Shown: positions 36,094 to 43,720 of the stretch, in pieces
Layout: each line of letters begins with the position of its first letter
How positions within the stretch are numbered: position 1 is the stretch's first letter
NCBI GenBank assembly: GCA_046483985.1
Contig: JAWOCD010000084.1
Span: forward strand, 65,525-129,524
Reading direction: 5' to 3'
DNA from: Promethearchaeia archaeon
GTDB taxonomy: Archaea; Asgardarchaeota; Lokiarchaeia; Sigyniarchaeales; SOKP01
Length of the DNA stretch: 64,000 bases
Notes under the pieces: model-generated
What the model was told of the DNA's origin: nothing
What the model saw: only the letters and a program-made list of their open reading frames with translations
The model's database searches: none
Translations under genes and position numbers: made by a program

Positions 36094-36912
36094 TTGAGTG
36101 ATTCAGGAATAAAAATCATAAAACATCTTGATGTTTCCAGTATTGAATTAAATAAACCAATTGCAATTCTAGGAATGCCAGGTATTGCCGATATCGGAAA
36201 ATTTGCACTTGATTCTTTAGTGGGTCAATTAGAGGCAAAAAGTATGACTGACATCATTTTTGATGGATATCCCGCCGGTGCTATAGTTGACGATAGTCTA
36301 TTATCCGTTCCGAAGGCAGAAATTTTACTATGGAGGGATCCCGAACATGTAAGAGATATCTTATTAGTAACTGCAGATGCTCAGAGTTTAACACCAAAAG
36401 GAATATATAAAATCTCTAATTTTCTCACGGAAATGTTGTTTAAAATGGGAACGGATTTGATAATAGCTTTAGGCGGATATCCGGTTAATGGTCAAAATAT
36501 TAAGTCTAAGATTCCCAAAATCTATTGTACATCCACTAACCAAAAGCTTCTCAATAATTACGTTCAAGAAGATAACTGCGAGAAAATAAAAAAAGGAGTA
36601 ATTATCGGAGCGAATGGTTTAATTCCAACGTTGGCTAAATCTCGGTATAATGTTAATGGATTAGTATTCTTGGCAGAAACGGATAATGTTGCTATGGTGA
36701 ATGAAGATATTACCGATTTAAAAGCATCTATTACGTTATTGAATATGCTAAAATCGACTTTTATGTTACCAATTAAAAATAAATTCAACATGGAGAATAT
36801 TGAAAATATTAACAAAAACCTACAGTCGAAAAAAGATCAATTGGAAAAAGAACTCGATAAAATTCAATTGGTTGATAGTAAGGACGAGAAACGTAAATCC
36901 TTGTATATTTAA
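36094..36912 (+). CDS. PAC2-family proteasome assembly chaperone (PbaB-like)
   Basis: GMPGIADIG, DAQ, IIALGG, IIGANGLI, AET; C-terminal HbYX motif LYI. Confidence 0.82.
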   Translation: MSDSGIKIIKHLDVSSIELNKPIAILGMPGIADIGKFALDSLVGQLEAKSMTDIIFDGYPAGAIVDDSLLSVPKAEILLWRDPEHVRDILLVTADAQSLTPKGIYKISNFLTEMLFKMGTDLIIALGGYPVNGQNIKSKIPKIYCTSTNQKLLNNYVQEDNCEKIKKGVIIGANGLIPTLAKSRYNVNGLVFLAETDNVAMVNEDITDLKASITLLNMLKSTFMLPIKNKFNMENIENINKNLQSKKDQLEKELDKIQLVDSKDEKRKSLYI

Positions 36913-36975
36913 AATTTTAATTTCTCTTTTCTCTTTTTTAATTAAGAATATCTATCAAATAAAAACAATTAAGAA

Positions 36976-37140
36976 TTATTTAACCTTTATTCTTTTAATA
37001 ACGTCAGGTCGCTTTTTATAAAGGATTCTAAATCCACAATGAGAGCATTTTATACCTGGTAATGCAATTAGTTCTTCTTTACTTACTTCTTTTCCGCAAG
37101 ATTTTCTCGCACAAACGTATTTCATAAAAACCACTTTCAT
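36976..37140 (-). CDS. rpoP: DNA-directed RNA polymerase subunit P (Rpo12); not in ORF track
   Basis: Hand translation MKVVFMKYVCARKSCGKEVSKEELIALPGIKCSHCGFRILYKKRPDVIKRIKVK; alternative start at 37125. Confidence 0.9.
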   Translation of the reverse strand: MKVVFMKYVCARKSCGKEVSKEELIALPGIKCSHCGFRILYKKRPDVIKRIKVK

Positions 37141-37204
37141 AAAAAATTATTTTACACTATCAATTAAAAGGGCATTTCAATTAAATTTTACGATTTCCCC
37201 CTTT

Positions 37205-38125
37205 TTAGAGATTTAAATGGTTGATGATCTCTTTGTATCTATTACGAATGGTAGCTTCAGTTACCCCCGCCGTTTTAGAGATCTCTTTTTGAGTTCTTCT
37301 CTCTCCTTCTTGCATTGCAGCAACATATAATGCTGCACCAGCTAATCCAGAAGGAGATTTCCCCGTGGTAAAGTGATGCTTTTTAGATAATTTAATTAAT
37401 TCCGCCGCTCTTTTTAAAGTTTTACCAGAGAGATTTAGATCAGAACAAAACCTTGGGATATAAGTTTTAGGAGAAGATGCCTTCAAATTAAGATTTAACT
37501 CCCGGATAATCAATCGGAAACATCGAATAATCTTTTTCTTACCAACTGTGGCAAACTCAGTAAAATCAGCAACCCGTTTTGGAATGTTATTTATCTTACA
37601 AGAAACATAGATTGCTGCTATCAACATTGCTTCGATTGATCTCCCCCTGATCATATTTTTGCGAGCAATTTTTCTATATATTAATGCTGCAGACTCTTTT
37701 ATATCTTTTGGCAAATTTAATTGAGAAGAAAGCCGTTCCAATTCATTTAATGCTCTGGATAAATTCCTATCTATTGATTTATTTGTACGGCTTCTAATAT
37801 GCCACTTTCTTAAACGATAGATATTTGCCTTCATTTTAGGGCTTATGGATCTACCAAAAGCGTCTTTATTCCTCCGTCCAATCATCGTACTTAAACCTTT
37901 ATCATGCATCGTGAGGGTAGTGGGGGCTCCCACTCTTACCTTCTTACTAGCTTCCTCAGCACTAAAGGCTCTCCATTCAGGTCCAGTATCTATTATTCGC
38001 TGAGTTATTACTAGTCCGCAAGAACCACATATTAATTCTGCTCTAGAATCATCCGAAATTAAACTTTTATTCCCACACTCGGGACATTCTATACGTTTAT
38101 TGGAATCTTTTTGCAACATATTCAA
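37205..38125 (-). CDS. tfb: Transcription initiation factor B
   Basis: CPECG..CGSCG Zn ribbon, IDTGPEWRAF, HDKGLST, GRSIE, TIRNRYKE. Confidence 0.96.
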   Translation of the reverse strand: MNMLQKDSNKRIECPECGNKSLISDDSRAELICGSCGLVITQRIIDTGPEWRAFSAEEASKKVRVGAPTTLTMHDKGLSTMIGRRNKDAFGRSISPKMKANIYRLRKWHIRSRTNKSIDRNLSRALNELERLSSQLNLPKDIKESAALIYRKIARKNMIRGRSIEAMLIAAIYVSCKINNIPKRVADFTEFATVGKKKIIRCFRLIIRELNLNLKASSPKTYIPRFCSDLNLSGKTLKRAAELIKLSKKHHFTTGKSPSGLAGAALYVAAMQEGERRTQKEISKTAGVTEATIRNRYKEIINHLNL

Positions 38126-38369
38126 ATATATGTTTCATCTTTGTATTCTCATTCTTAGGATTAATAATTATATTCATGTTTTTAAATATTTGCGTTTTCA
38201 ATATTATATTGACTAATCATCTCCGCATGTTTCTCCAAAGATCATATCTGGTTAATAATTTTTATTTCGTGGGAAATAATTTGCGACATTATTTTCTATC
38301 TTATAAACTATGAATTTTAGTAAATAGCACAGAAGTATTTAAAGCATAAAACCTTATACTCTGCCTATT

Positions 38370-38724
38370 ATGAAAAGGGAGCAACTTAAACAGATTTATG
38401 AGGTCTCTATAAATGAAAAAATAATGCTTAAACATTGGATAAAAAAAAACGCACATGAAAATGGGATCTGGCGTGGACATGATCTTGGATGGAATCGTGT
38501 TTCTTCACAACATTGAAGCATTTCAAGACTACATTCTCGATAAAGAGCGGCAAAGCTCTAAGTTAGAAGGAATTATCGCCGCACGCCCCTGGGACCAAGA
38601 ATTAACGTCCTTAAAACGTGGCCTAAAGATTCATCTTAGTTGGGTAAAGAAGGATTATGGGAAATACACGGAAGTATACAATAAGTTTTACAAGTTGAGT
38701 CATAAAGATTTTATTGACGAGTGA
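38370..38724 (+). CDS. Hypothetical protein, probably split by a frameshift in an A9 run (ORF track shows only 38455..38724)
   Basis: The ATG 38370 frame joins the 38455 frame if one A is removed from 38441-38449. Confidence 0.45.
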
Positions 38725-38899
38725 ATTAGGAAACACTTAAAAAAAAAGATGCTTGATTTGTTTTAAACTTGTTTAAAAGTTTGGAATTGATCAATAAATT
38801 TTAATAAAAATTTTATAATTTATTATATGATAAATATTATTATTGTACGAATTTATATGTTGTATATTTAAATTTTTATAAAAATAGGGATATTAATAA

Positions 38900-39517
38900 A
38901 TGCCAGTAGATTACGAAACGGCTGTTTATAATTTAATGGAAGCCGAACCAGCCATAATTGCAGTTGCAATAGTCAAAGGAAAAGATATAGTTTATTCAAC
39001 AGATAATTGGGATATTAGTAATGATCTTTCTCAAGTCCTTTCGAGCTGGAATTCAATGAATGCTCAATTCATAAAGATTAGCGGTGTAAAGTATTCAATG
39101 TTACAATGCACGGTAGAAAGAATCACTGCAACCTCACTAAAGGGAGAAGGGCATATTGTGGGTGCAAAAGATGAAGAGCATAAGGTAATTTCATATGTAG
39201 AGGCGGAAGGAGATATGAGAACAGCATATCCGGAAACCGCGCGATGTTTATCTTCGCTTAGTTCAAAAGGGCCTTATATGGACGCCAACACCCAATTGGG
39301 ATCAGGAGAAGAGGGTGGTGGTGCCGCAACCGCTGGAGGAGGAGCATCTAACGTAGATCCTCAGCTCAAAAGTGAGATAGAGGCATTTTTGGAGTGGATA
39401 AACTCTAAAGACGGTCTCCCAGGTTATATAAAATATTATTTAGAACAAAACGACTCACAAGTTATCTCCCAATTAGCGGAAGTATATAATGAGTTACGAG
39501 GGATTTTTGGAGTTTAG
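38900..39517 (+). CDS. Asgard-type profilin with Gly-rich linker and extra C-terminal helical domain
   Basis: AVAIVKGKDIVYSTDNWDI, ISGVKYSMLQCTVERITATSLKGEGHIV match the Loki profilin pattern as I recall it; ~85 extra residues. Confidence 0.8.
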   Translation: MPVDYETAVYNLMEAEPAIIAVAIVKGKDIVYSTDNWDISNDLSQVLSSWNSMNAQFIKISGVKYSMLQCTVERITATSLKGEGHIVGAKDEEHKVISYVEAEGDMRTAYPETARCLSSLSSKGPYMDANTQLGSGEEGGGAATAGGGASNVDPQLKSEIEAFLEWINSKDGLPGYIKYYLEQNDSQVISQLAEVYNELRGIFGV

Positions 39518-39615
39518 ATTTTGTTTTTTAAAGTTAATTTTTAATTATATCCAAACAATATTAATAGTAGGAACTTAATTTCATTAAAATTATTTTATTA
39601 CCACAATAAAATAGA

Positions 39616-40740
39616 GTGAGAACTTTGGTTTTAGAATTCTATAAAGTAAAAGAGGACAAAATCTTTTTATCTAATGATTTTACCCATAATGATATTGTAT
39701 TCATTTTGGACGGAAAAGCAGGGTATATTTGGAAAGGAAAAAAAGCAAAAAATTTAGATGAATTAACTGCCAAGAAGGTCGAATCTTTAATTCGGAAAAG
39801 ATTTCAAGATACAAATTTTCAATTAATCCAAAAAGCAAATATCTATGAATCAGATAACCCAAAAATAAAAGAAATTAAAAAAGGACTCAATAAAAGACTT
39901 CCCAATCCAGTTATTTCCTCCATAAAGAATACTCCCAAATCGTTTTTTTATAAAATAAAGGAAAAATATAAAAAAATAAAAAATTATGAAGATTCATGGA
40001 AATGGAGGAGTAAACTCTCCAATATTACAAATATATGGAGATTATTAATACTTAATGTCATCATTATTTTCATTTCGATAATCTTAATGATGAATAAATC
40101 TATTTTTTATCTTCAATTGAACGATTTTTCTCTATTAATCGCTCTCCTGTCTTTAGGGATAATTTCCATCATGAATCTTATCTATATCATTTTTCCAATG
40201 AAGATACAAGTATTGGATTTATATACAAAAGAAAAAAGGAAGGAAGGAGAACTACCCCCTAGTCCAAAGCTTCCAGAACATAAAAAAGGAGTAAGGAAAA
40301 CGAAAGCAAAGGTAAAGAAAATTGAGATTCCAGATATAAAACCATCCAAGAAAAAGGAAAAAAAAGGAAAAAAAAAAGAGAGTTTGGAATACTCCTCTGA
40401 AGAGGAAGAGGAATTAGATGTTCCAAGCATACCTGAGGCGCCTGAAAAGAGATTAAATGTAAAGATCGAGGATCCTAATCTTTCCACAGAAGTTGTTAAG
40501 AAAATGGAAGAATTAGATAAAAAAAATAACGAAGTGGTGTTAGTTAATTGCGATAGATGTAAATCAGTCATACCAATTCCTGTGCCCAAGGATGCTGTAG
40601 AGAAATCTGAATTGCCTATTGTTCCCATTAGTTACGTTCATAAAAATATGAAAGCAAAAGATAAGCATTGTATTACAATCCACCTAGATCATGACTTTGA
40701 TATAAGAAGACGAAGATTTTCAGATGTAATTACTGAATAG
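39616..40740 (+). CDS. Gelsolin-like domain + 2 TM helices + Pro/Lys-rich linker + Cys/His Zn domain
   Basis: DFTHNDIVFILDGKAGYIWKGKKA..E gelsolin core; hydrophobic segments at ~aa 143-195; C-terminal CDRC..H..HC. Confidence 0.65.
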   Translation: MRTLVLEFYKVKEDKIFLSNDFTHNDIVFILDGKAGYIWKGKKAKNLDELTAKKVESLIRKRFQDTNFQLIQKANIYESDNPKIKEIKKGLNKRLPNPVISSIKNTPKSFFYKIKEKYKKIKNYEDSWKWRSKLSNITNIWRLLILNVIIIFISIILMMNKSIFYLQLNDFSLLIALLSLGIISIMNLIYIIFPMKIQVLDLYTKEKRKEGELPPSPKLPEHKKGVRKTKAKVKKIEIPDIKPSKKKEKKGKKKESLEYSSEEEEELDVPSIPEAPEKRLNVKIEDPNLSTEVVKKMEELDKKNNEVVLVNCDRCKSVIPIPVPKDAVEKSELPIVPISYVHKNMKAKDKHCITIHLDHDFDIRRRRFSDVITE

Positions 40741-40814
40741 AACTAATCCTCAGTCAGAAAAAAAAGCAACACTTTTTTACTTAAGTTTTTAATTATTTTT
40801 TAATTATCCTCACT

Positions 40815-41888
40815 ATGGAAATAAATGTAGGAGTTATTGGAGCGAGCGGATACGCGGGCGGAGAAGCTGTTCGACTTTTGAATTTTCATCCGAATGTGAA
40901 CGTTACCTATATTACCTCTCGGAGATTGATCGGAAAATATTTTCATACCGTGTATCCTAACTTAAGAAATATAACCAACATCAAATTTGAAGAGTATGAT
41001 GTTGAAACGGCGAAAGAAAAGTGTGATCTGGTTATTTTGGGGGTTCCCCATGGAATTTCACAGAACTTTATCCCCGAATTAAGAGAAGTTGGATTAAAAG
41101 TAATAGATTTGAGCGCTGATTTTCGACTTAAAGATCCTACTGTTTATAAAAAATATTATAAAAAAGAACATTCAACAACAGAATATCTTGAACAAGCCGT
41201 ATACGGAATGCCAGAACTTCATAGGGATGAGATTAAAGACGCTAATTTAATTGCGGTGCCCGGATGTCAAGCCGCTTCAGCAATATATGCATTATTCCCG
41301 CTAATTAAAGAAGGCATTATAGATACGGAGAGTATAATTGTTGATTCAAAAACTGGTTCCTCGGGATCTGGTGCTGGACATAATAAGGCATCGCATCATC
41401 CTACCAGAGCAAATAGCATCCGTCCCTATAAAATGACTGGGCACAGACACACTGGCGAAATTGAACAAGAATTATCTAATTTGTCTGATCCTAACGGTCC
41501 CCAGGTTAAAGTGGGATTTTCGGCTCATGCAGTCAATTTGGTAAGAGGTATATCATCAACTTGTCATACCTTTTTTAAAGATAAAAGTAAAATCAATAAA
41601 AGAACCTTGTTTAAAGCATATAGAAAAAACTTAAGAAATGAACCATTTCTTCGATTGATAAAACAAAATACGGGAGTTTTTCGGTTACCAGATCCTAAAT
41701 TAATTGCCGGTACCAATTATTGCGATGTGGGATTTCAAATTGATCCCCATATGAATCGAATTGTCGCCTTGAGTGCTTTAGATAATTTAATCAAAGGAAC
41801 AGCGGGAAATGCAGTACAATGTTTAAATCTTATGCACGGTTTTTCTGAAGAAACAGCATTAGAATTTCCGGGGTTTTACCCCTCTTAA
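40815..41888 (+). CDS. argC: N-acetyl-gamma-glutamyl-phosphate reductase (ArgC/LysY)
   Basis: GASGYAG, IDLSADFRL, VPGC, SGSG, HRH, DNLIKG. Confidence 0.92.
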   Translation: MEINVGVIGASGYAGGEAVRLLNFHPNVNVTYITSRRLIGKYFHTVYPNLRNITNIKFEEYDVETAKEKCDLVILGVPHGISQNFIPELREVGLKVIDLSADFRLKDPTVYKKYYKKEHSTTEYLEQAVYGMPELHRDEIKDANLIAVPGCQAASAIYALFPLIKEGIIDTESIIVDSKTGSSGSGAGHNKASHHPTRANSIRPYKMTGHRHTGEIEQELSNLSDPNGPQVKVGFSAHAVNLVRGISSTCHTFFKDKSKINKRTLFKAYRKNLRNEPFLRLIKQNTGVFRLPDPKLIAGTNYCDVGFQIDPHMNRIVALSALDNLIKGTAGNAVQCLNLMHGFSEETALEFPGFYPS

Positions 41889-41894
41889 AAATTT

Positions 41895-42116
41895 CTAGAG
41901 CATTACAATTAATAACCCAATTAAAATTGGAGACAAACAAATAAAGCATAAAAAGCCATAGAAACTTAATTTCCACTTGATATATTCATTTGGATTTAAA
42001 ATTACTCCACAATTTGGGCAATACTTCTGATGTGGATCAATAATTTCCGTTTGGCAATTATAACATGATCCTTTTATGGATTTCTTTTCCAAAGCTTTTT
42101 TGTCGGTTTCCAACAT
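41895..42116 (-). CDS. Small Zn-ribbon protein with C-terminal TM
   Basis: CYNC..CPNCG; hydrophobic tail. Confidence 0.65.
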   Translation of the reverse strand: MLETDKKALEKKSIKGSCYNCQTEIIDPHQKYCPNCGVILNPNEYIKWKLSFYGFLCFICLSPILIGLLIVML

Positions 42117-42238
42117 AAAAATTTAGCAAAACATAGAATTCTGAAAATTGATAATAAGGTAAATCTTTAAACCAAATTTAATATATATAAAAATATAATA
42201 GAATTTTTAAAGTATTGCTATAAATCAAGTTAAAGATA

Positions 42239-43042
42239 ATGAGTGGATATATTGGCAAAAAAGTGCGCCTTGAGAGAATTGTTAACAGAGAAACAAAAAG
42301 AACAATAATCATTCCTATGGATCACGGTCTAACTGTGGGACCGATTAAGGGGATCGATAAAAACTTGGGGGAAATGGTAAATAAAGTTGCCTTAGGTGGA
42401 GCAAATGCAGTTCTGGGACATGTTGGTATACCTATGTATGCCCATAGAGGATATGGACCTGATATTGGATTAATTCTTCATTTATCTGGTTCCACAAGTA
42501 TAAGCCCAGATACAAATTATAAAGTGTTAGTTAACACGGTTTTAGAAGCGGTTAAATTAGGTGCAGATGGAGTATCTGTACATATAAATATTGGCACGAA
42601 CTCCGATCCAGAGATGCTTGAAATATTGGGAAATATTTCCAGAAAATGTCGAGAACTTGGAATGCCTTTATTAGCAATGATGTATCCAAGAGGAAAAGAC
42701 ATTGAAGATGAACATGATGTCGAACTTGTTAAGATTGCGGCTAGAGCAGCTGCAGAACTGGGAGTAGATATTATTAAAACGAATTGGACGGGTGATGCCG
42801 AATCGTTTAAGGAAGTCATTGATGGATGTATGGCTCCCGTAATTATTGCAGGAGGATCAAAATCAGGTGTGAGAGGCATCCTTGAAATAACAAAAAAGTC
42901 TATCGAAGTTGGAGGTGCAGGTGTAGCATATGGGAGAAATGTATTTCAAGCAGAAAATCCGACTAAAGTGGTTAAGGCATTATATTATATTGTCCATAAA
43001 AATTATGAGGTTGATGAGGCAATAAAAGCTTCTGAACTATAA
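42239..43042 (+). CDS. Class I aldolase, DhnA family (probable ADH synthase AroA')
   Basis: GKKVRLERI, PMDHG, AMMYPRG, DIIKT, AGG, GRNVFQ. Confidence 0.88.
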   Translation: MSGYIGKKVRLERIVNRETKRTIIIPMDHGLTVGPIKGIDKNLGEMVNKVALGGANAVLGHVGIPMYAHRGYGPDIGLILHLSGSTSISPDTNYKVLVNTVLEAVKLGADGVSVHINIGTNSDPEMLEILGNISRKCRELGMPLLAMMYPRGKDIEDEHDVELVKIAARAAAELGVDIIKTNWTGDAESFKEVIDGCMAPVIIAGGSKSGVRGILEITKKSIEVGGAGVAYGRNVFQAENPTKVVKALYYIVHKNYEVDEAIKASEL

Positions 43043-43053
43043 GATATAATAAA

Positions 43054-43410
43054 ATGAAGTTAATTGGCAAAAAAAGTAAAGATCTAGACAGTATTAGTCT
43101 ATACTTGAAACTCCATAAATTCAATAAGGGATATTTATTATTAGTCTCAGATAAGGAGGAAATGGGGATTGGGAATGTTTCTTTAGGAACACCCACGAAT
43201 ATAGAGGAAATGAAAACAACTTCCTCTTCCTATAGACTGTTCGGGGTGGATAAAAGCTATTTGAGTAAGATTTTGGTCGAACGGGCCGCAAATGTTCTTA
43301 AAGAGCCTGTACTACTCTTATTATTTTTAAAAACGAAAAAGAGAGAGGAAGAACTGGCAAAACCTCTTATACAAATATTAGATGAATTATTAGATAAATG
43401 TGAACAATAA
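43054..43410 (+). CDS. Possible PAC3/PAC4-like proteasome assembly chaperone
   Basis: YLLLVSD..IGNVSLGTP..LFG..LSKILVERAA..PVLLLL resembles the PAC4 pattern. Confidence 0.5.
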   Translation: MKLIGKKSKDLDSISLYLKLHKFNKGYLLLVSDKEEMGIGNVSLGTPTNIEEMKTTSSSYRLFGVDKSYLSKILVERAANVLKEPVLLLLFLKTKKREEELAKPLIQILDELLDKCEQ

Positions 43411-43720
43411 GATGCGAAATTTCATTCTGATTAAGGTATTTGGTAATACTGTAAGAGTTAAGGTAATTGAAGTTTTATTAGCTCATCTGATCAGTAATAA
43501 GGAGACATGGCTTAATTTATCCGAAATTGCAAGACGTGCGAATATTTCTGTTTCCTCATCCAAAAGAATTGTGGATCAATTAATTGAAGAGGAATATGTG
43601 GATTTACATCACATTGAAACCCATGCGAAAAATCCAGAAAAGGAAGTCCGTTTAAATGTGGATAATAAAATAGTGAATGAATTAGTTTTCTTTTATAGAA
43701 AGATTAAGGGATTTATTTAA
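43400..43720 (+). CDS. Winged-helix transcriptional regulator
   Basis: VFGNTVRVKVIEVL, LNLSEIARRANIS. Confidence 0.75.
   Translation: MNNKMRNFILIKVFGNTVRVKVIEVLLAHLISNKETWLNLSEIARRANISVSSSKRIVDQLIEEEYVDLHHIETHAKNPEKEVRLNVDNKIVNELVFFYRKIKGFI

Follow-up and report, generated by a model that had tools for sequence, protein, structure and literature searches.

A C-terminally extended profilin and a membrane-hairpin gelsolin-fold protein encoded side by side as a candidate membrane-associated actin-regulatory gene module of one Lokiarchaeial order

Do two neighbouring genes of a Lokiarchaeial genome, one encoding a profilin-like protein and the other a protein with a gelsolin-like domain and a membrane hairpin, belong to one system that regulates actin at the membrane? 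The question was raised by an earlier note, made from the letters alone, on a stretch of 64,000 nucleotides (hereafter the window; GCA_046483985.1, contig JAWOCD010000084.1, positions 65,525 to 129,524), which lies on contig C37 of a genome of 4.06 Mb that is 97% complete. The two co-oriented genes 98 base pairs (bp) apart that the note had described were found exactly so, with gene A at 38900-39517 (plus strand, ATG start, 205 amino acids (aa)) and gene B at 39616-40740 (plus strand, GTG start, 374 aa), according to the list of open reading frames (ORFs) and the sequence. G+C content of the DNA of both genes is 31%, similar to that of the surroundings. As set out below, a probability of about 0.5 is given to the reading that both genes belong to a functionally linked, membrane-associated gene module for actin regulation that is particular to a single Lokiarchaeial order.

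In the public record, gene B begins three codons later at a TTG (39625), which gives a protein of 371 aa and a gap of 107 bp. Since gene B homologues mostly begin one or two residues ahead of a conserved EFY, the TTG at 39625 is at least as likely to be the start as the GTG at 39616.

The profilin domain of gene A (38900-39265, plus strand; residues 1-122) was delimited by sequence matches in the Protein Data Bank (PDB), an AlphaFold model and Foldseek, and the profilin-like character given to the gene by the earlier note was confirmed by them. By phmmer against PDB sequences, residues 18-122 matched the Odin profilin 5zza (E 4e-12), followed by 7pbh (1.1e-9), Loki profilin 2 (5zzb, 1.9e-7) and Loki profilin 1 (5yed, 2.8e-7). 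The AlphaFold model, built with 30 homologues, had a predicted local distance difference test score (pLDDT) of 80-90 across residues 1-120, and its comparison with the Odin profilin by Foldseek gave E 6e-10, a template-modelling score (TM) of 0.84 and a root-mean-square deviation (rmsd) of 1.6 Å over 116 residues. The best 50 Foldseek matches consisted of 49 profilins and one profilin-containing chimera.

Behind this domain come a Gly-rich variable linker (39266-39349, plus strand; residues ~123-150), with low pLDDT and varying length, and a C-terminal three-helix module ending with IFGV, designated P3H (39350-39517, plus strand; residues 151-205 plus the stop codon). Residues 124-151 of the model were disordered (pLDDT <50), and the helices of P3H were placed at residues 154-168, 173-182 and 186-203, respectively, with pLDDT of ~75. 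An F, a W, an I, a G and an F of P3H are invariant across the order, and the end reads IFG[VF]. The gene A family comprises 559 database clusters, all of ~200 aa, with 58-83% identity among the 120 clusters listed and a mean column identity of 73%, P3H included; the sole length-variable part of the family alignment is the Gly-rich linker. Gene A encodes a genuine profilin of the Asgard type, to which P3H is attached by a flexible tether.

P3H also occurs by itself, as a free-standing 53-aa copy in the same genome (G000:C107:27504-27665, plus strand; L056:505-663), with E 4e-8 and the end IFGF; this small gene lies 138 bp upstream of that of an 890-aa DEAD-box helicase carrying a DUF5814 domain. 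P3H was not found in five genomes of other orders in the same class. Proteins of 421-441 aa from another order of this class (L036:4447-5712, minus strand, also protein P0322) join a profilin domain of the gene A type to a leucine carboxyl methyltransferase domain (PF04072, E 9e-32).

Gene B is composed, in order, of a gelsolin fold, a juxtamembrane region, a hairpin, a basic Pro-rich linker, a proline motif, a short helix and a domain designated CB. The N-terminal gelsolin/cofilin-fold domain (39616-39843, plus strand, with the alternative start at 39625; residues 1-76) was recognized by Foldseek and VIA. In the AlphaFold model of gene B, for which 20 homologues were used, residues 7-71 form a domain of a sheet and a long helix, and with this domain Foldseek retrieved 20 gelsolin-family matches at E <1e-3, those at E 2e-4 to 8e-4 including Thor 2DGel3 (E 1.9e-4), human gelsolin domains and Thor ProGel. 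The comparison with Thor ProGel gave a TM of 0.64 and, by VIA, a Z of 7.9 with 79 residues aligned at an rmsd of 2.9, and villin, scinderin and flightless clusters are among the neighbours of the domain in the ESM Atlas.

A DWG motif has been described for all gelsolin domains, with an Asp hydrogen-bonded to a Trp, followed by a Gly (preprint 10.1101/768580). In gene B it corresponds to D32, W39 and G41, which are invariant in 20 full-length homologues; in the family f2 the Trp is replaced by Tyr (families f1-f4 and genera g1-g13 carry our own numbers). D26 and E49, which may correspond to the type II calcium-site Asp and Glu of gelsolins, are at least 90% conserved and sit at the acidic positions of the adseverin and villin alignments, themselves weak matches (E 0.3-0.5), which are also the best E values obtained for the N-terminus against PDB sequences. 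The domain as a whole is well conserved across two families. Membership of gene B in the gelsolin family, as proposed in the earlier note, is thus borne out by the predicted fold, with Thor 2DGel3 and ProGel among the matches, and by the motif, and does not rest on the sequence score, which is weak.

The helical juxtamembrane region (39844-40029, plus strand; residues 77-138), delimited from the alignments, contains the conserved strings DNPK..IK...RLP and YE.S..WR.KLSN.TN.W, and its modelled helices (82-94, 98-105 and 110-122) run into the first membrane helix. The membrane hairpin (40030-40200, plus strand) consists by hydropathy of helix 1 (residues 139-160), a 10-residue loop and helix 2 (residues 171-195), and the corresponding helices of the AlphaFold model were 124-167 and 172-192, respectively. 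N147 and P194 do not vary, nor does D170 among full-length homologues, and N187 is at least 90% conserved. When the whole model of gene B was used for a structural search, the matches were mostly helical hairpins at residues 122-202. Because the Lys and Arg residues around the hairpin number 10 before it, 1 in its loop and 20 after it, both of its ends are predicted to be cytoplasmic, and the gelsolin domain and the motif/CB region would face the cytoplasm; the charge distribution fits the membrane anchoring that had been proposed for gene B.

After the hairpin, a disordered polybasic, Pro-rich linker (40201-40386, plus strand; residues 196-257; pLDDT <50) carries 20 Lys or Arg in 55 residues and varies in length. 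The hairpin and both proline-rich strings named in the earlier note are indeed present: ELPPSPKLP lies in this linker (residues 212-220; 40249-40275), with P214, P217 and P220 at least 90% conserved, and VPSIPEAP (residues 269-276) lies in the proline motif EY.SEE...L.[IV]P.[IV]PEAPKK (40387-40452, plus strand; residues 258-279), which was defined from the alignments. The core of the motif is acidic-L-x-[IV]-P-x-[IV]-P-x-x-P, and its P270, P273 and P276 do not vary among 20 full-length or among 28 mixed homologues. A spacer with a short helix (40453-40521, plus strand; residues 280-302), in which the modelled helix covers residues 291-300 and the string DSPGLST is conserved, leads to CB.

CB is a five-stranded beta domain (40522-40740, plus strand; residues 303-374 plus the stop codon), the five strands of which were modelled with pLDDT of 77-88. 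C312, C315, H342 and H351 are invariant across 23 diverse copies of the domain; in the full gene B model C312 and C315 are at the turn between strands 1 and 2, and H342 and H351 lie on either side of the loop that joins strands 3 and 4. Because the Cys and His pairs lie at two hairpin turns of the model, a putative zinc-ribbon-like Cys2His2 site is suggested. No Pfam match was obtained for CB with the several CB-bearing architectures tried, the CB profile found nothing below E 2 among PDB sequences, and the ESM Atlas feature search with CB returned uncharacterised Promethearchaeota clusters only. The CB family amounted to 186 representative clusters among 1.84 billion proteins, and the architecture in which the gelsolin domain and hairpin (Gel-hairpin) are joined to CB was detected in ~16 of 150 CB representative clusters.

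Conservation of the pair, for which the earlier note had proposed a synteny check, was examined with profiles of gene A and gene B in 151 genomes from the class, 145 of which had the extended profilin. In 93 of the 127 genomes of family f1 the best profilin match was followed on the same strand by the best gene-B match, mostly at less than 300 bp and at ~600 bp at the most; for most of these f1 genomes, the match was limited to the last 130-160 profile positions of gene B. Forty loci spread across genera were then fetched, and their ORFs were scored with separate domain profiles. With the window included, a co-oriented downstream partner was present in 27 of the 41 loci, in five architectures. 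The fused Gel-hairpin-motif-CB form occurs in g1 (the genus of the window), g9, g4 and one f2 genome; a hairpin-motif-CB protein lies downstream of the profilin in g8, g10 and g11, and a soluble motif-CB protein of 124-169 aa does so in g2 and g5 and in part of g6. In g8 and most of f2, Gel-hairpin has a gene of its own, which in g8 is also met as the gene downstream of the profilin. In f2 there is either a Gel-hairpin gene downstream of the profilin and a divergently transcribed CB gene upstream of it, or a downstream pair of small CB proteins.

Because the pairing of gene A and gene B recurs in related genomes, it is not due to chance. What is robustly conserved at the core is the extended profilin together with the motif/CB protein; the membrane gelsolin often joins them as a third part, and it may be fused to the CB unit, split from it or lost. 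Of the two-gene module of profilin and gelsolin put forward in the earlier note, the conserved neighbourhood has therefore held, and the identity of the conserved partner has changed, this being the motif and CB part, with the gelsolin-hairpin unit often separate or not found. The pattern of fusion and fission argues that Gel-hairpin and motif-CB act together, and the persistent adjacency argues, less strongly, that both act with the profilin.

Among the genomes searched, strong motif-CB orthologues, P3H and Gel-hairpin were confined to the order holding families f1-f4. A search of 201 Asgard genomes gave full-length matches to the Gel-hairpin unit in families f1 and f2 only, and outside the order CB gave only weak matches (E 8.9e-8 and 5.8e-5), in two of five genomes of other orders.

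The intergenic spacer of the window occupies 39518-39615 (plus strand). Across the 27 related loci, profilin and partner are separated by a median of 91 bp (range 0-522 bp); three of the gaps are of 0-23 bp, and operons are therefore indicated for these three loci.

CB and its motif are also met in other settings. A shorter motif (L-G/S-I-P-P-x-P-K-K) stands ahead of CB in f2 proteins and in a paralogue with two CB copies in the source genome. Runs of PPPP occur in profilin-adjacent CB relatives (L031 and L034); one of these, encoded just upstream of the profilin in an f2 genome (L034:6210-6944, minus strand; 244 aa), has three tandem SAPPPPKLPG repeats resembling FH1, and another has ATPPPPKVPKSP. 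The source genome holds seven more CB copies in six other reading frames, which were located with the CB profile (G000:C69:2841-3497, C29:64401-65021, C85:31007-31615, C97:47912-48184, C45:1324-1497 and C6:4747-4899). One of these proteins has two tandem CB copies with ELGIPPIPAPKK ahead of them, two of ~205 aa share a common N-terminal domain, for which a weak clathrin-adaptor-small-chain (longin-like) match was obtained in one, and one copy lies within a 764-aa reading frame. In the ESM Atlas, the CB region was matched structurally by a Promethearchaeota cluster of 275-aa proteins (74 residues, rmsd 2.3), and a quarter of the members of this cluster have a ubiquitin domain.

The genes around the pair (window 36094-43720) keep their order across the family, with or without the partner gene, which occupies a variable slot bounded by the profilin and argC. 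The order starts with a 272-aa protein, called PAC2-like from its sequence only, which is followed by a 54-aa zinc protein, TFB (minus strand) and the profilin slot; after the slot come argC, a zinc-ribbon membrane protein of 73 aa (minus strand), an aldolase-like protein and two more proteins, of 118 and 106 aa in that order. Directly upstream of the extended profilin, 38 of the 40 fetched loci encode a protein of ~150 aa that is rich in Cys and His (HG.HC.LRSF..CP.CG..YWEC.HG) and weakly matches a C2H2 zinc finger, and it occurs in families f1, f2 and f4 (for example, L001:5841-6293). No such protein is encoded at 38126-38899 of the window, where an unrelated 89-aa ORF (38455-38724) takes the position, and none was found anywhere in the 97%-complete source genome with the protein of the closest relative as the query.

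Several other genes of the source genome are related to actin. It encodes Lokiactin (G000:C101:111660-112772), three actin-related proteins, two profilins of ordinary, short length (125 and 128 aa), a protein resembling 1DGelX and a 2DGel of 374 aa (on G000:C97, L051:887-2011) whose linker is long and acidic and whose C-terminal zinc domain is of the (CxxC)2 kind described for Loki2DGel; a 90-aa CB protein lies ~7 kb from this 2DGel on the same contig (C97). A second membrane protein with a gelsolin domain (G000:C102:15479-16312, minus strand, locus L053; 277 aa) has the gelsolin domain at residues 9-74 and ~4-5 hydrophobic segments, and has no CB.

If the genes of the locus are functionally linked, the gelsolin domain of gene B would cap, sever or nucleate Lokiactin filaments at the membrane, the motif/CB region and the Pro-rich linker would dock the extended profilin through P3H or through the profilin surface, and profilin-actin would thereby be concentrated where the filament ends are held. 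What we infer is that both domains bind actin, that CB binds zinc, that the motif/CB or proline-rich region recruits the profilin and that the module has a part in anchoring filaments, or in their growth, at the membrane. A stronger form of this proposal, drawn by analogy, would make the locus the prokaryotic counterpart of a membrane-localised actin assembly factor, in which the anchored gelsolin would hold or nucleate filament ends, the motif and the zinc domain would capture actin-loaded P3H profilin, and growth would be fed at the membrane, as it is by FH1 or VASP in eukaryotes, and would drive protrusions; in this form it is unlikely, and it is offered as a tentative picture. A complex prediction for the extended profilin with the motif-CB region scored 0.00, with the partner poorly folded and without controls, and it was used neither for nor against binding.

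A number of results weigh against a linked actin-regulatory module. The Pfam scores are below their cut-offs for both proteins: PF00235 (Profilin) gave 18.4 bits on gene A against a cut-off of 25 bits, and was likewise sub-threshold (22.9 bits) for the other profilin of the source genome that it detected, and PF00626 on the N-terminus of gene B gave 14.1 bits (E 0.042) against a cut-off of 21 bits. The proline patterns of gene B are PPSP, P..P and P..P..P, with no run of four or more prolines, and profilin-1 and profilin-2 of Loki and the profilin of Odin reportedly did not bind a VASP polyproline peptide (PMC8410842), for which weak binding was reported with Heimdall and Thor profilins (PMC8410842). 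In g3, g7, g12 and g13, and in part of g6, argC follows the profilin immediately, with no partner gene between them, and the 27 genomes sampled from the two largest genera (g2 and g5) yielded no Gel-hairpin. A search for longer profilin-containing proteins yielded the methyltransferase fusion alone, with no profilin-CB or profilin-gelsolin fusion. Right after the stop codon of gene A in the window there is a T4-G-T6 run (39519-39529). Finally, CB is found on unrelated-looking proteins too and may be a general-purpose module.

These results have to be weighed together with three other explanations. Both proteins might regulate actin independently of each other, the adjacency being an inherited gene order in the variable slot between profilin and argC. 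The constancy of the flanking order (PAC2-like, TFB, Cys/His protein, profilin, argC and aldolase-like) with or without a partner, the five genera that have no partner gene, the runs of five or more T in 21 of 27 spacers and the failure to find a profilin-partner fusion agree with such independence, which is possible but somewhat unlikely, because whatever fills the slot is in every case a CB-bearing or Gel-hairpin gene, the three parts stay together in f2 even though their order and strand have changed, and three loci have the 0-23 bp gaps. Furthermore, Gel-hairpin and motif-CB have repeatedly been joined and separated, which speaks for a joint function of at least those two.

The remaining two explanations take actin away from one or the other part of the locus. 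The extended profilin and the motif/CB protein could be the conserved unit and have a main function other than filament dynamics at the membrane, for instance as a zinc-domain regulatory or adaptor system in which the profilin fold serves as a binding module, with the gelsolin-hairpin as a lineage-specific addition. This would suit the majority of the genomes, where the soluble motif-CB protein is the only partner, as well as the variety of proteins that carry CB (including clusters with a ubiquitin domain in a quarter of the members), the Cys/His protein directly upstream of the profilin in nearly all fetched loci (38 of 40) and the fusion of the same profilin domain to a leucine carboxyl methyltransferase domain in another order. 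The profilin domain is, however, very near in fold to actin-binding Asgard profilins and its family has 73% mean column identity, and gelsolin domains were repeatedly joined to the CB unit (~16 of the 150 representative clusters), so this system is improbable. It is also conceivable that the N-terminal domain of gene B keeps the gelsolin fold without binding actin, and that gene B is a membrane scaffold for another process. Its gelsolin similarity by sequence is sub-threshold (14.1 against 21 bits, and E 0.3-0.5 in the PDB), and its closest structural match, Thor ProGel, binds rabbit actin very weakly (Kd 337 μM, PMC7444086); on the other side, the DWG motif does not vary and D26 and E49 hardly do, conservation extends to the long helix and, across two families, is good for the domain as a whole, and gene B adjoins a profilin gene; a scaffold of this kind is considered very unlikely.

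Asgard gelsolins and profilins regulate actin in vitro, and some of them co-precipitate with Lokiactin (PMC7444086, PMC13716822), among them a profilin of L. ossiferum, a species with nine gelsolin-homology proteins; according to the authors of the Lokiactin co-precipitation, membrane proteins were probably under-represented by the method (preprint 10.1101/2025.11.30.690169). Gene A has the same fold as the known Asgard profilins (5zza; 5yed/5yee; 5zzb), with TM of 0.76-0.84, rmsd of 1.6-3.0 Å, 27-32% identity and E from 4e-12 to 3e-7, and differs from them by its C-terminal Gly-rich linker and 55-residue three-helix module; in the extended Asgard profilins described so far, the extension is N-terminal (PMC8410842).

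For the gelsolins, the architectures ProGel, 1DGelX and 2DGel were described by Akil and colleagues (PMC7444086). Thor ProGel (7c2f), 1DGelX and gene B each have one N-terminal gelsolin/cofilin-type domain followed by non-gelsolin sequence. The 1DGelX protein was purified in recombinant form and assayed in solution, and its domain X is a predicted coiled coil (PMC7444086), whereas gene B, compared with that description, has the juxtamembrane region, the two-helix hairpin, the basic Pro-rich linker and the Cys2His2 beta domain. Thorarchaeota 1DGelX fused to GFP was concentrated at ER-like and nuclear-envelope-like regions (ER, endoplasmic reticulum) in human cells (PMC7444086), a localisation that is suggestive by analogy and is not tied to gene B.

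A similar layout is that of Loki2DGel and MKD1-2DGel, which share with gene B the succession of one or more gelsolin domains, a charged or Pro-rich linker and a small C-terminal putative zinc domain. The C-terminal Zn domain of Loki2DGel, a (Cys-x-x-Cys)2 type of ~45-64 residues, also occurs alone and on unrelated Loki proteins (PMC9433394), whereas CB has one Cys-x-x-Cys and two invariant His in ~70 residues; the CB profile did not match the 2DGel of the source genome, which is of the (CxxC)2 type, and no sequence similarity of CB to the published Zn domain was detectable. No membrane anchor has been described for the 2DGels, whereas gene B has the hairpin. Formin FH1 and Ena/VASP proteins resemble gene B in that a Pro-rich disordered segment stands beside an actin-end-binding domain, with the profilin encoded alongside in the present case; gene B differs from them in having neither an FH2 nor an EVH domain and no polyproline runs. 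In the papers searched, no transmembrane Asgard gelsolin, P3H-type profilin or gene cluster of this kind was found described. Gene A and gene B are new architectural variants of known Asgard actin-regulator families, and belong to one Lokiarchaeial order in the genomes searched.

In published work, Asgard profilins and gelsolins have been treated as soluble regulators. Cultured Asgard archaea have actin-filled, dynamic protrusions, and for the coupling of the filaments to the membrane and the delivery of monomers the locus offers concrete candidates that are widely conserved, namely a gelsolin domain fixed to the membrane, a profilin with an additional module of a docking type, and a zinc-type domain with a proline motif that travels with both. 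The locus is a good candidate for a link between the actin skeleton of archaea and the membrane, though an unproven one.

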